DNA from: an archaeon
Lineage (GTDB): Archaea; Iainarchaeota; Iainarchaeia; Iainarchaeales; Iainarchaeaceae
Assembly: GCA_038046625.1 (NCBI GenBank)
Contig: JBBSVV010000050.1
Span: forward strand, 1-30,266
Length of the DNA: 30,266 nucleotides
Direction of reading: 5' to 3'
Made by a program: the position numbers and the translations under genes. Numbering within the stretch: position 1 is the stretch's first letter; each line of letters opens with the position of its first letter. Below the pieces are notes generated by a model. That model saw nothing but the letters and a program-made list of their open reading frames with translations, ran no database searches and had not been told where the DNA came from. Shown here one piece after another: positions 2,916-25,337 of this stretch.

Positions 2916-3059
2916 TCATTTTCTTTTTTTCTTTTTCGGCTTTTTCCTGGGAGCCTTCCTTGCCTTGGCCTCTATTTTCTTTACTTCCTTTGCCTTTCTC
3001 TCGAGCCTTATTCCAAGCCTCTCAAGGGTTTTTCCTATTACTTTCAAATCTATGCCCAT
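2916..3059 (-). CDS. Small Lys/Arg-rich protein, 47 aa (MGIDLKVIGKTLERLGIRLERKAKEVKKIEAKARKAPRKKPKKKKRK), not in the ORF track
   Basis: ATG at 3059, TGA at 2916-2918, SD GAGGTGA at 3068-3074, leader hairpin 3080-3096 and TATA-like CTTTAAATAT at 3117-3126 (minus strand). Confidence 0.8.
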   Translation of the reverse strand: MGIDLKVIGKTLERLGIRLERKAKEVKKIEAKARKAPRKKPKKKKRK

Positions 3060-17720: not shown

Positions 17721-17996
17721 CGTTTCGGTTTTGTACCAAACCCGTAAACGCCTTTAAATAGGGAATAAGGCAAAATTTAAGGCTTTTGAGGAAGGGTTGT
17801 CAGTCAATAAACGAACCGTTCCAAATCGCCTTAACGAGCCCGAGAACAAGAAGCATTAGGCAGGGAAGAAATTAAAAGGAAATCGCTTTTTTCGGCAAAC
17901 AGCGAAATTCGGGTTTTTGGGGTGCTTTGGAGGGCATTAACAGAAAAACAGAAAATCAGGAATAAGTCGCCTGCAAACCCAAGCTTTTTCCGGCTT

Positions 17997-18157
17997 TTGC
18001 TGCGAAGCAAACACACCATCAACGAAAATCACCGCACAGGTGATTTGGGTTGCTGCGAAGCAAACACACCATCAACGAAAATCACCGCACAGGTGATTTG
18101 GGTTGCTGCGAAGCAAACACACCGTCAACGGAATGCCCGTTAGGGTATTGGGTTGCT
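17997..18157. repeat. Tandem array of three ~53-bp hairpin modules
   Basis: Units start at 17997, 18050 and 18103. Units 1 and 2 are identical. Unit 3 keeps ttgctgcgaagcaaacacacc-R-tcaacg and ttgggttgct but carries a different internal hairpin. Confidence 0.92.
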
Positions 18158-22729: not shown

Positions 22730-23956
22730 TCAGCTCACCAGCTCCGCACTGCCGCGCGCCAGCAGATAAAATGCCGCAAAGGAAGGCAACGGCACTTCAT
22801 CGCCATTAAAAGGGCCAAACCACTCGCCATTCAAGTAAAATTTCGGGGCAACCGCCTTGGAAAGCTTCACTTCGCCCGAGGAAAAAACAACGCACTCCTT
22901 CAAAGGGTTATGCGATGGAAGCGCAGAAAGCGGAACCTCCTTTGCCTGCAAACCGGTTGAGCCGTGAAGCGTGTCCGGAACGCGGATTATCTTGTTTATG
23001 TCAATGGAAGTCTGCCTGTCTATCTCAAGCTTGTCCTCGGAAACCGCAAAGCCGAGCATTGAACCCCAGAAGCGCTCCGCATTTACCCCCGAACGGCCGC
23101 TAACCAAAAAACCCCTGTCCATGCTACTAATAAGCCCCTGCTTTTCTTTTAATAATTTCTTGGCCTGGGAAACCGATGCGGAGCCGAAAACCGCTATTTT
23201 TGAGGCGTCCCCCTCATTGAAAAGAGCCTCTATCCGCTCAAGGATGCGCTTTGACCAGCCCTTTGCAGCACCTCTCTTGGGGCAGGAATAAGCCTTATTT
23301 GAATAAACAAAGCCAAGGGCCTTCAAATCAAGGTTTGTTCCCGTGAGATAATCAAGCAGCTCGAGGCGCGCGGCCTTCGAAAAGCCCCTCACGGAAGCGC
23401 CGCGCACATGCACATGATAGCCCTTGCTGCCGGAAAAATTCACGGAAACCCCTTCCGAAAAAGAGAAATCCTTCTCAAGAACCGAAATGAGGTTCAATGA
23501 CTGCCGCCTCGTTTCCGCCAGGCAATCCGGGCAAACCCACTCCTCAACGCTTGTTCCGGAACCGCATTCCGCGCACACATCAACGTTGCCCTTTCCGGAA
23601 GCGCCGCACTTCGCATTCATGCATTGCCACGAGTCATGGGAAAGCTTGCAATCCGTTTTGATGTCATCCGCATCAAACTCATAAATCAGATCCGCGCCGA
23701 GCAAACCCTTCTTCTCCATCGGCCTGTCGGCAGGCCTTGAGTAAAGCGCGTCCGAATAGGAAATGTAGAACGGGGTTTTTTCGCGCAGAAAAGAATTCAT
23801 TTCAGCGGCATTCCTGAAAGCGAGGTGCCTTGAGGAAATCTTCTTCCCGAAAACCCCGAAGCCGAATTCCCTTGCGCTTATTTCCGGCACGGAGCCGATA
23901 GTGTGCGCACTATAAAAGCCGCGCAGCATCCCTTTGAGAAAATCCTCCGCCCCCAT
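22730..23956 (-). CDS. priS: DNA primase catalytic (small) subunit
   Basis: REFGF, RHLAF, GADLIYEFDADD, FSGSKGYHVHV, IDRQTSID and RVPDTLHGSTGL motifs. Confidence 0.95.
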   Translation of the reverse strand: MGAEDFLKGMLRGFYSAHTIGSVPEISAREFGFGVFGKKISSRHLAFRNAAEMNSFLREKTPFYISYSDALYSRPADRPMEKKGLLGADLIYEFDADDIKTDCKLSHDSWQCMNAKCGASGKGNVDVCAECGSGTSVEEWVCPDCLAETRRQSLNLISVLEKDFSFSEGVSVNFSGSKGYHVHVRGASVRGFSKAARLELLDYLTGTNLDLKALGFVYSNKAYSCPKRGAAKGWSKRILERIEALFNEGDASKIAVFGSASVSQAKKLLKEKQGLISSMDRGFLVSGRSGVNAERFWGSMLGFAVSEDKLEIDRQTSIDINKIIRVPDTLHGSTGLQAKEVPLSALPSHNPLKECVVFSSGEVKLSKAVAPKFYLNGEWFGPFNGDEVPLPSFAAFYLLARGSAELVS

Positions 23957-24059
23957 AATTTAGGTTGGCGGAAAACAATTAATAAAGCGTTAAGAAAAAA
24001 AAGAACGGGAAAAAAGGTAAAAAATTCCAATTAGCGTTATGTTGTGCAAAAAAGCCCGT

Positions 24060-24098
24060 TTATTTCCTTTTTGCTTTCTTTTTTTTCTTGGCTGCCAT
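24060..24098 (-). CDS. Putative 12-aa poly-lysine micropeptide MAAKKKKKAKRK, not in the ORF track
   Basis: ATG at 24098, TAA at 24060-62, SD GGGAGGT at 24107-24113 (8 nt spacing), leader hairpin 24119-24148, CTTTAAATAT at 24170-24179, and downstream T-tracts. Confidence 0.65.
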   Translation of the reverse strand: MAAKKKKKAKRK

Positions 24099-24239
24099 TG
24101 GCGCTAACCTCCCTTGAAAATTTTTTCACATTTTGTATGGAAAAAATTTAATTAACTAAGGGCCTTTCCATATTTAAAGTTTTGCAAACGCGCCTCAAAA
24201 TAATTTTTCCGTGCAATTGCGAAAAAAAATCAGGAAAAA

Positions 24240-25337
24240 CTATTCCGGTGCCGAAAATATTTTTTCCCCGCCGCTTGATTCCGGATGCGGCTTGGATTTT
24301 TCGCGGGTGTAAAACTGCACAGGGTGGCTCACATGGCAGTTCGCAACGCACAAATTATAGGAGCGCATCTTGTCGCAGCTCGGCGCACTGTATCCCGCCG
24401 CCATGCCCGCGGCGGGAGAGCGGCTCATCTTCGCTTCGCTCGATGAACCTAGCTTCGCGCCGGAGCCGACCAACCTCTCAACCTGGTAGCGCGTGGTTCT
24501 CTCGTTGAAGTTCGGGGTCTGCCTGTACATGTCTATTATTTTTTCCGGCTCCATGCCGATGGAGTAAAGGAAAGTTGCAATCGCGAACCTCGCGGAGTGG
24601 TTCACCTTTACCCCTGCTATAAGCTCGGAATAAATTTTTGCCATGCAAGGCGGAAAATTTTCCGGGGCAACGCCCCCGAAATCCGTCCTGGAGAACTGCT
24701 TCCTCGAAACCTCGGCGAATCTTCCTTTGAGCGAATCCGCGGCGCTTTTGAACTGCGCCGGCACGCCCTTCACGGGAACCGGCAGCGATTCGCGCAGCTC
24801 CTGCGCGACAATCATTGAAACGTGCCGCGCGAACAGGTTCCTGTCGAGGAAAACTTTTCCTTTGGAAACCTGGGCATTCGCGAGCTTCATGGAAGCCGAG
24901 TCAAGCTCCGGCCTGAGGTAATCTGAAATGCCTAGTTCGACAAAAAAAAATTTGTCCTCCGAAAGGTTCGCCTTGAGGCCGAGGTCCATCGCGATGCCGA
25001 GGAGAACGTCGCTCTTTTCATTCTCGAGATTCAGAAAAACAGAATCGGAAACCATTGAGCAGAATTTCCTGTACAGCTCGAAGCGGTCAATCATTGAAAC
25101 AAGTATTTTTGCGGCAGGGAACGCAAGAATCTCGTCAAGGAGAAGCCCGGGGGATGCCTCGATGCGCGGGCCGTAATTTTTTTCCTCAAAAGCCGAGGCA
25201 ACCATTGACCCGGCTCGGCGCAGGACGCTTTCCGGAATGTCCTCGAGCAAGTATCCCGACTGCTTTACGGCCATCTTTGCGGCCGTGGAGAAAAAATATT
25301 TCTGCGCAAACCTAAGCTCTTCAACCGGTTGCGGCAT
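24240..25337 (-). CDS. priL: DNA primase large subunit
   Basis: FPPCM, HSARFAIATFL, PNFNERTTRYQVE and YSAPSCDKMRSYNLCVANC..HP (four Fe-S cysteines). Confidence 0.93.
   Translation of the reverse strand: MPQPVEELRFAQKYFFSTAAKMAVKQSGYLLEDIPESVLRRAGSMVASAFEEKNYGPRIEASPGLLLDEILAFPAAKILVSMIDRFELYRKFCSMVSDSVFLNLENEKSDVLLGIAMDLGLKANLSEDKFFFVELGISDYLRPELDSASMKLANAQVSKGKVFLDRNLFARHVSMIVAQELRESLPVPVKGVPAQFKSAADSLKGRFAEVSRKQFSRTDFGGVAPENFPPCMAKIYSELIAGVKVNHSARFAIATFLYSIGMEPEKIIDMYRQTPNFNERTTRYQVERLVGSGAKLGSSSEAKMSRSPAAGMAAGYSAPSCDKMRSYNLCVANCHVSHPVQFYTREKSKPHPESSGGEKIFSAPE
24393..24468. repeat. Palindromic element inserted in-frame in priL
   Basis: tcccgccgc/gcggcggga (24393-24417), tcatc-ttcgcttcgctc-gatga (24425-24446) and cggctc/gagccg (24421-24468). 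Coincides with a ~20-aa low-complexity insert. Confidence 0.6.

Follow-up and report, generated by a model that had tools for sequence, protein, structure and literature searches.

A conserved archaeal micro-gene encoding a lysine-rich peptide, a candidate free polycation for nucleic-acid condensation

Nucleic acid is neutralised and condensed by small polycations such as protamines, which are arginine-rich, and polyamines, which are metabolites made by enzymes. Any polycation binds DNA in vitro. Among lysine-rich proteins, the chlamydial Hc2 (HctB; PF07382, NF038052), Bordetella BpH1 and the Burkholderia H1-like family NF038053 are built of lysine-rich pentamers with A/V/T/P spacers, and Hc2 and BpH1 change their length by gain and loss of repeats and have a repeat region without a folded DNA-binding domain; Hc2 condenses DNA and binds RNA, and BpH1 is dispensable (PMC2848022, accessible part). 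The C-terminal tail of linker histone H1 is disordered, consists mainly of K, A and P, and has a DNA-condensing composition (PMC11331069, in part), and the KPAA tail of Pseudomonas AlgP is similar in its K/A/P composition and disorder (PMC9239181, in part). These proteins are the nearest counterparts of the peptides described here.

The window, i.e. the whole analysed stretch of 30,266 nt, is a contig (JBBSVV010000050.1) of an Iainarchaeota genome (GCA_038046625.1, hereafter G000; 986 kb in 57 contigs, 85% complete). The locus under study (L047) lies on its minus strand between two genes which, from the original prediction and the look of their translations, we take to be priL and priS. Its features, from upstream to downstream, are:

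24240..25337, minus strand: priL, presumed primase large subunit, upstream neighbour (ORF list; in relatives, homologues precede the peptide gene)
24170..24185, minus strand: BRE-like GCAAAA and TATA box CTTTAAATAT of the peptide gene (sequence read)
24118..24149, minus strand: hairpin in the A/U-rich leader, where the transcript is expected to start (fold)
24107..24113, minus strand: Shine-Dalgarno (SD) sequence GGGAGGT, 8 nt 5' of the ATG (sequence read)
24060..24098, minus strand: 12-codon ORF MAAKKKKKAKRK plus stop, eight basic residues (sequence read; same-genus copy)
23990..24059, minus strand: T-rich 3' region, probable archaeal terminator (T-tracts; fold z +0.3)
23979..23986, minus strand: TATA box TTTATTAA of priS itself, 30 nt before the priS ATG, in a leaderless layout (sequence read)
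22730..23956, minus strand: priS, presumed primase small subunit, downstream neighbour (ORF list; homologues in 39 of 41 genomes)

The BRE-like element occupies 24185-24180 and the TATA box 24179-24170, and the ORF reads ATG GCA GCC AAG AAA AAA AAG AAA GCA AAA AGG AAA TAA from the ATG at 24098 to its end at 24060. The TATA box, the strong SD, the 12 codons and the T-tracts were all found where the original prediction had placed them. The priL stop (24240) and the priS start (23956) leave 283 nt between them, in which the unit lies 103 nt ahead of priS with T-tracts in between; no stable hairpin was found in the T-rich region of the window genome. A TATA-like box 27-33 nt before the priS start is present in the window and in 14 of 20 genus/family loci, including L006, L015 and L017, which lack the peptide gene. 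Since priS is preceded by a TATA box of its own whether or not the peptide gene is present, the peptide gene is a separate unit, in agreement with the predicted stand-alone organisation, and in this family merely sits in the primase cluster.

By a crude count, an SD of at least 6 nt is rare in the window genome (11 of 1140 long frames). TATA+SD+ATG units number 12, the peptide gene and a gene for a 47-aa basic protein included. Three further strong-signal TATA+SD units of this genome, on C11, C18 and C28, are candidates for abundant nucleic-acid binders; we take their products to be a 50-aa SWIB-like protein, a 54-aa CxxC zinc-ribbon and a TRAM-like protein. Of the 46 SD-led ORFs in the 986-kb genome that span 6-70 aa and contain 40% K+R or more, the peptide ORF is the richest in K/R. 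A comparable ORF arose in 1 of 12 order-4 Markov simulations of this genome, so that the signal of the single genome is only modestly beyond chance, and the status of the gene therefore rests on comparative data.

The set of relatives comprised 41 genomes; priS was located in 39 of them, the DNA upstream of it was taken from 38, and basic ORFs were sought there without the peptide as bait. An SD-led, K/R-rich ORF occupies the same spot in 11 of 20 genus/family loci (12, 27, 72, 59, 14, 64, 15, 22, 11 and 28 aa, and one cut by a contig end), which bears out the synteny with priL and priS proposed as a check of the prediction. Among the genus/family loci without it, six have a short gap and three give no information, owing to an N gap, a contig end or a priL located elsewhere; in other families, 2 of 18 loci hold the ORF upstream of priS. 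The spurious ORF of L013 was left out of these counts. The SD precedes all ten complete syntenic genus/family ORFs, and that of L021 too; a TATA box nearly identical to that of the peptide gene was found in L001, L002, L010 and L020, fetched by means of priS, and a TATA-like box in 25 of 34 archaeal members. T-tracts also follow the stop codon in the syntenic relatives. Synonymous AAA/AAG variation, another proposed check, occurs among the relatives: the same-genus copy (G001) has one such change in the 39 nt of the ORF against 4 changes in 184 flanking nt, this pair being too close for a selection test. The SD, ATG, frame and stop are retained across a six-fold change in length, as opposed to the frameshifts, or the loss of ATG and SD around a surviving A/T tract, by which a mere terminator was to be recognised. 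Taken at the level of sequence, these comparisons confirm a real, conserved micro-gene.

A search for the 5' pattern of the gene gave 28 matches in 24 of the 41 genomes, as compared with 3 when the pattern was reversed. Of the 28, 24 proved to be K/R-rich ORFs of 9-79 aa, often next to other genes, and L041, L053, L063 and L065 were left out as ordinary genes. With all approaches pooled, members were confirmed in 24 of the 41 genomes, or in 25 if a doubtful 9-mer in G028 is counted. In G004, G005, G009 and G030, which are 91-95% complete, SD-led members were not seen, and the gene is therefore probably dispensable. Within the phylum, 23 of 204 genomes contain a match to a strict short-ORF pattern (control: 1), and the 14 newly fetched loci comprised ten members, three non-members and one ORF (L071) overrunning the usual stop, with L070, L077 and L079 left out. 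A loose pattern matched 104 of 133 genomes, and about 10 of the 31 ORFs read among the matches listed are family members; neither figure gives the prevalence in the phylum, as the strict pattern misses long forms and most of the ORFs read for the loose one are non-members. At L071 (G097) the peptide frame continues past the usual stop to 28 aa, and the same-genus L072 (G100) holds an 11-mer; a frameshift or an assembly slip in the A-run are candidate readings. In the A-rich genome G005, dispersed repeats starting ATGGCTC(G/A)CAAAAAAA occur in several copies (C2, 7159-7819, and other sites) and do not clearly belong to the family.

The prediction envisaged a pattern search of DPANN genomes; members were indeed found there, but the class is much wider. 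At least 120 stretches of GTDB genomes matched the pattern SD-ATG-GC..(AAR)3..stop. Among 80 titled stretches, 11 are from DPANN-type or unnamed archaea, one is titled Nitrosotalea, and the rest are bacterial (Acidobacteriota, Binatia, Rokubacteria/Methylomirabilota, Verrucomicrobiota, Patescibacteria, Nitrospiria, Elusimicrobiota, planctomycetes, an actinomycete and others). Records of a Limisphaera and a Dactylosporangium are among the matching stretches. The peptides among the matches listed have 9-17 aa and the form MA(A/T/K)KKK...KKK, and the stop is in frame in 116 of the 123 matches listed, vs about one third expected; four of the seven out-of-frame matches are ordinary genes (L117, L135, L147, L182), two are longer members and one is a read-through variant. 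Selection acts at the level of codons. Within clades the peptide is fixed and third positions vary, with 8 distinct coding sequences among 11 copies of one 16-mer, in a comparison where the kin are not independent and the search pattern itself fixes some codons. In GC-rich genomes AAG is used almost throughout, and long A-runs are avoided: the mean longest run is 5.4 vs 6.6 once codons are shuffled, and of 163 ORFs, among them close kin and a few loci represented twice, 114 have a shorter run than their shuffles and 23 a longer one. The relatives thus support a stand-alone, selected and translated-looking gene, in line with the proposal of a polycation gene missed by ordinary gene calling. Being of such low complexity, these genes may share one ancestor or could have arisen independently in distant phyla.

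Similar peptides of 10-15 aa were also seen in viral contigs (L302-L317; 14 of 16 matches in frame), in several variants such as MACKKKGGKKKK or MAYKKKGKKK, and are possible counter-ions of packaged DNA. The record titled Nitrosotalea (L154) has a Rokubacteria-type gene and terminator in a 4.6-Mb genome, and its label may be wrong.

After the initial Met, the 34 archaeal members, a set preselected for at least 43% K+R, contain 54% K, 21% A, 9% R, 6% V, 4% T and 3% P, with S also present, and not a single D, E, F, W, Y, L, I or C. In composition they agree with the K/A/P-dominated, disordered tail of linker histone H1. The longest of them (L042, 79 aa) consists of 15 runs of [AVTP]2-3[KR]2-3 covering 77 of 79 residues, and consecutive pentamers of two basic and three A/V/T/P residues occur in L042, L054, L056 and L064. 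Such xxxKK strings, a pattern known from chlamydial Hc2, are the architecture of the long members; the 12-mer of the window, equivalent to about two repeat units, is too short and K-dense to show pentamers. The DNA repeat periods in six long members are mostly multiples of 3, and tandem or second copies exist in L039, L157, L171/L297, G006, G010 and G034, as would suit a reagent needed in bulk.

Hc2 differs from these peptides in its length of 165-237 aa (about 150-240 aa when Hc2-like proteins are included) and its C-terminal domain; the peptides have 9-79 aa and end in a K/R run, their HMM scores lie far below the cut-offs, and the archaeal carriers also possess histones. The 72-aa member scored 15.5 bits against PF07382 (cut-off 40), and L042 scored 33.7 bits against NF038053 (E 4e-8, cut-off 80) and 21.7 bits against NF038052 (E 2e-4, cut-off 135); all family matches fall below cut-off, and composition alone may explain them. 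Unlike H1 and AlgP, the peptide has no globular winged-helix or other N-terminal domain (no winged-helix hit in Pfam for the 72-aa member, and no room for one in 12 aa) and is one tenth as long; sequence of such low complexity allows no demonstration of homology to the H1 and AlgP tails. In the ESM Atlas, the best feature hit for the 72-aa member is a mostly archaeal cluster auto-named 'Histone family protein' (0.95, a lead only), and its Atlas model has a pTM of 0.14. Eight longer members (22-79 aa) were absent from a collection of 15 billion proteins, the 72-aa one being present in the ESM Atlas. A PDB sequence search gave three matches, all of them weak sigma-factor tails.

We propose, with a probability of roughly 0.6, that the product is an abundant, disordered, free polycation which binds and condenses DNA and RNA. 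The stand-alone micro-gene would yield an intrinsically disordered peptide, in effect the H1 C-terminal tail or the Hc2 repeat unit minus the folded domain, and the strong TATA box and SD would ensure that many copies are transcribed and translated. Removal of Met would leave an 11-mer with eight basic side chains, which could bind phosphate backbones without sequence specificity, neutralise and bridge DNA (and RNA), and so aid compaction of the nucleoid beside the archaeal histone. Selection would act on charge, frame and the lack of acidic and bulky residues, not on length or exact sequence; since length and copy number vary freely under strict charge, a bulk polycation is favoured over a part with a fixed site. 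A histone was found in the window genome and in 31 of the 41 genomes, and Alba was not found in the window genome. Because polycations bind DNA in vitro regardless of identity, composition leaves the target in the cell unnamed. Octalysine (K8) fully retards plasmid DNA at an N/P ratio of 3:1, but its complexes are less stable, and K16 is the minimum for optimal packaging (PMC4991294, in part); a peptide with eight charges would thus be a weak, exchangeable condenser. Judged by its inferred function, the peptide would be H1-tail/Hc2-like in action, yet it falls outside the membership of both.

An unlikely alternative is a ribosome-bound micro-protein that neutralises rRNA, either a filler like eL41, bS22 or bTHX or a helper in hibernation or assembly. 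The product is tiny and very basic, with strong translation signals, a conserved MA-K-K-K start and a K/R end; invariant peptides occur in bacterial clades (MAKKKKAAKKKKK in 14 loci, MAAKKKAKKKAKKKKK in 11), and a gene which we take to be bL28-like lies convergently downstream in Rokubacteria-type loci. However, a fixed pocket does not accord with lengths that range over 9-79 aa, with the tandem copies, with the diversity of the non-ribosomal neighbours or with the lack of aromatics, no ribosomal chain was among the three PDB matches, and no family of the bS22/bTHX type emerged from Pfam and NCBIfam scans of the long members. The original prediction had considered an eL41-like peptide in particular. 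eL41/eS32 (PF05162), which has a conserved Trp, an R-rich helix and a fixed length, is likewise very short and very basic, but the peptide family lacks W-K-W, has K far above R and varies in length, and PF05162 had no hit at the peptide locus in the window genome or its relatives, the hits in relatives being a different gene. That gene is an eL41-like frame with W-K-W, 42 codons long from the putative start in all six complete cases (G001, G004, G005, G008, G014, G019) and partial in G018. Although the PF05162 search found no eL41 in the G000 assembly, the eL41-like region of G001 is itself absent from this 85%-complete assembly (no blastn hit), and because the carriers G001, G008 and G018 hold both genes, the peptide is not eL41. 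The Iainarchaeota-type eL41-like frames (L247-L252, L272) have an N-terminal extension, giving 42 codons with a probable TTG start vs the 25 positions of the Pfam model.

It is rather improbable that the peptide is a general counter-ion or organiser of condensates whose partner is polyphosphate, bulk RNA or an acidic protein, i.e. a genetically encoded analogue of polyamines. The KPAA tail of AlgP organises polyphosphate granules (PMC9239181, accessible part), and the spermidine-synthase family PF01564 had no hit in the window genome and in 13 of 14 carriers of at most 1.1 Mb. On the other hand, no acidic partner gene is linked at the window locus, and spermidine-synthase-like genes are retained in many carriers: PF01564 hits were obtained in 24 of 40 other carriers tested, 10 of them full-length at E<1e-34, so that the gene does not track the loss of polyamine synthesis, the pattern of a polyamine substitute is not borne out, and the suggested replacement of polyamines is weakened. 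In favour of the counter-ion reading, some copies lie directly upstream of a gene that we take to be that of a RimK-like ATP-grasp ligase; at L048, L049 and L055 (G010, G006 and G011; second copies in G010 and G006) they have leaders of 124-171 nt and end 10-65 nt before it. If such a ligase added glutamates to the peptide, the charge of the latter would be cancelled; tblastn found no RimK-like gene in the G000 assembly, and the idea of its membership in the system was dropped.

Very improbable is a cis-acting role, in which a leader peptide or structured RNA would control priS by attenuation or poly-lysine stalling and the peptide would be incidental. The short distance to priS with its intervening T-tracts would allow this, and in some members a stem that is complementary to the SD or spans the stop can form further downstream (fold of the window unit; L003 and L004 by eye). 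Nevertheless, besides the separate TATA box of priS, the downstream genes in most other lineages are unrelated or convergent, the long A-runs are avoided rather than kept, and Rfam gave no match over the unit (L047) at gathering score; the locus was accordingly not assigned to the attenuator leader peptides. The last reading, that the tract is no gene but an A/T-rich terminator or spacer which reads as lysines by chance, finds some room in the simulations and in the closeness of G000 and G001, but the retained signals, the reversed control, the in-frame stops and the AAG usage of GC-rich genomes make its chance close to nil. Roles other than those named have a slight probability.

Two traits by which the gene had been characterised proved to be incidental. 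The predicted 5' hairpin (24149-24118) does form, with a lower stem of 10 bp plus 3 bp and -7.3 kcal/mol, but 27 of 200 shuffles fold equally well (z -1.0, not significant). Leader hairpins were seen in L001, L009, L010, L012, L020 and L021, and no structured leader in L068 and L074; being neither significant nor universal, the hairpin was rejected as a defining feature. The TATA 10-mer is identical, as stated in the original prediction, to that of the gene for the 47-aa basic protein, but it occurs six times in the genome, elsewhere ahead of unrelated genes which, judged by their translations, are presumably those of TBP, a pilin and an antiporter-like protein. It is therefore a generic TATA box, and a special regulon defined by it was rejected. 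The 47-aa gene (window 2916-3059, minus strand) is itself real, and its conservation is at the level of the family: at E<=0.1 it has matches in 15 of 22 genus/family genomes and in 1 of 18 others. Its product has no Pfam or NCBIfam family, is present without a name in the collection of 15 billion proteins and is, by its sequence, of a family separate from the peptide; with the generic TATA box as the sole link, the suggested two-gene compaction system is not supported.

Gene callers skip a peptide of 9-17 residues that is two-thirds lysine, and trypsin shreds it, so that it would escape surveys by HMM and mass spectrometry. Surveys of archaeal chromatin look for known proteins by HMM and match mass spectra to predicted proteomes (PMC7613761 and an Asgard preprint, both in part). 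In the literature searched, which is sparse in subscription papers, we found no published description of such lysine micro-genes in archaea or bacteria, nor are they mentioned in the accessible parts of PMC11331069, PMC9239181, PMC9297842, PMC2848022, PMC7613761, PMC11764897, PMC4991294 and bioRxiv 10.64898/2026.07.02.735847. If the peptides are abundant, the inventory of chromatin and counter-ions would change both for small-celled archaea and for bacteria that are common in soil and groundwater. A wider and doubtful view, which we put forward tentatively, is that they constitute an overlooked class of ribosome-made oligolysines that extends over DPANN archaea, numerous bacterial phyla and some viruses. 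They would be a minimal, domain-free H1-tail module and a major constituent of chromatin that escapes gene callers and tryptic proteomics, and in histone-bearing archaea such as the present one they would do the job of a linker histone. If true, this would bear on the origin of the lysine-rich H1 tail, which an older review reportedly placed in bacteria.

Several RNA and repeat elements were noted in passing. At L073, L076 and L078, and partly at L048, a leader motif GGTGTGGC...TTTTGCTGTGGC...CTGATTCTAGCAA...TGCC is conserved about 85 nt 5' of the ATG; the former three belong to three families with different flanking genes, and the motif is a candidate structured RNA that had no Rfam match in L076, L078 and L048. 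Near the window's S-layer gene, a sequence of about 53 nt is repeated about three times (~17990-18140) between the promoter region of that gene and the gene upstream. In Binatia (L085, L087, L100 and others) the gene is followed by a conserved 3' element AAACCCTCCTTACTCTCAGGCGAC... that contains an anti-SD sequence. Rfam searches of 20 loci gave two matches, a tRNA in L048 and, in L109, a hairpin downstream of the gene that matches Acido-Lenti-1, an RNA motif which may thus be the 3' end of these transcripts.
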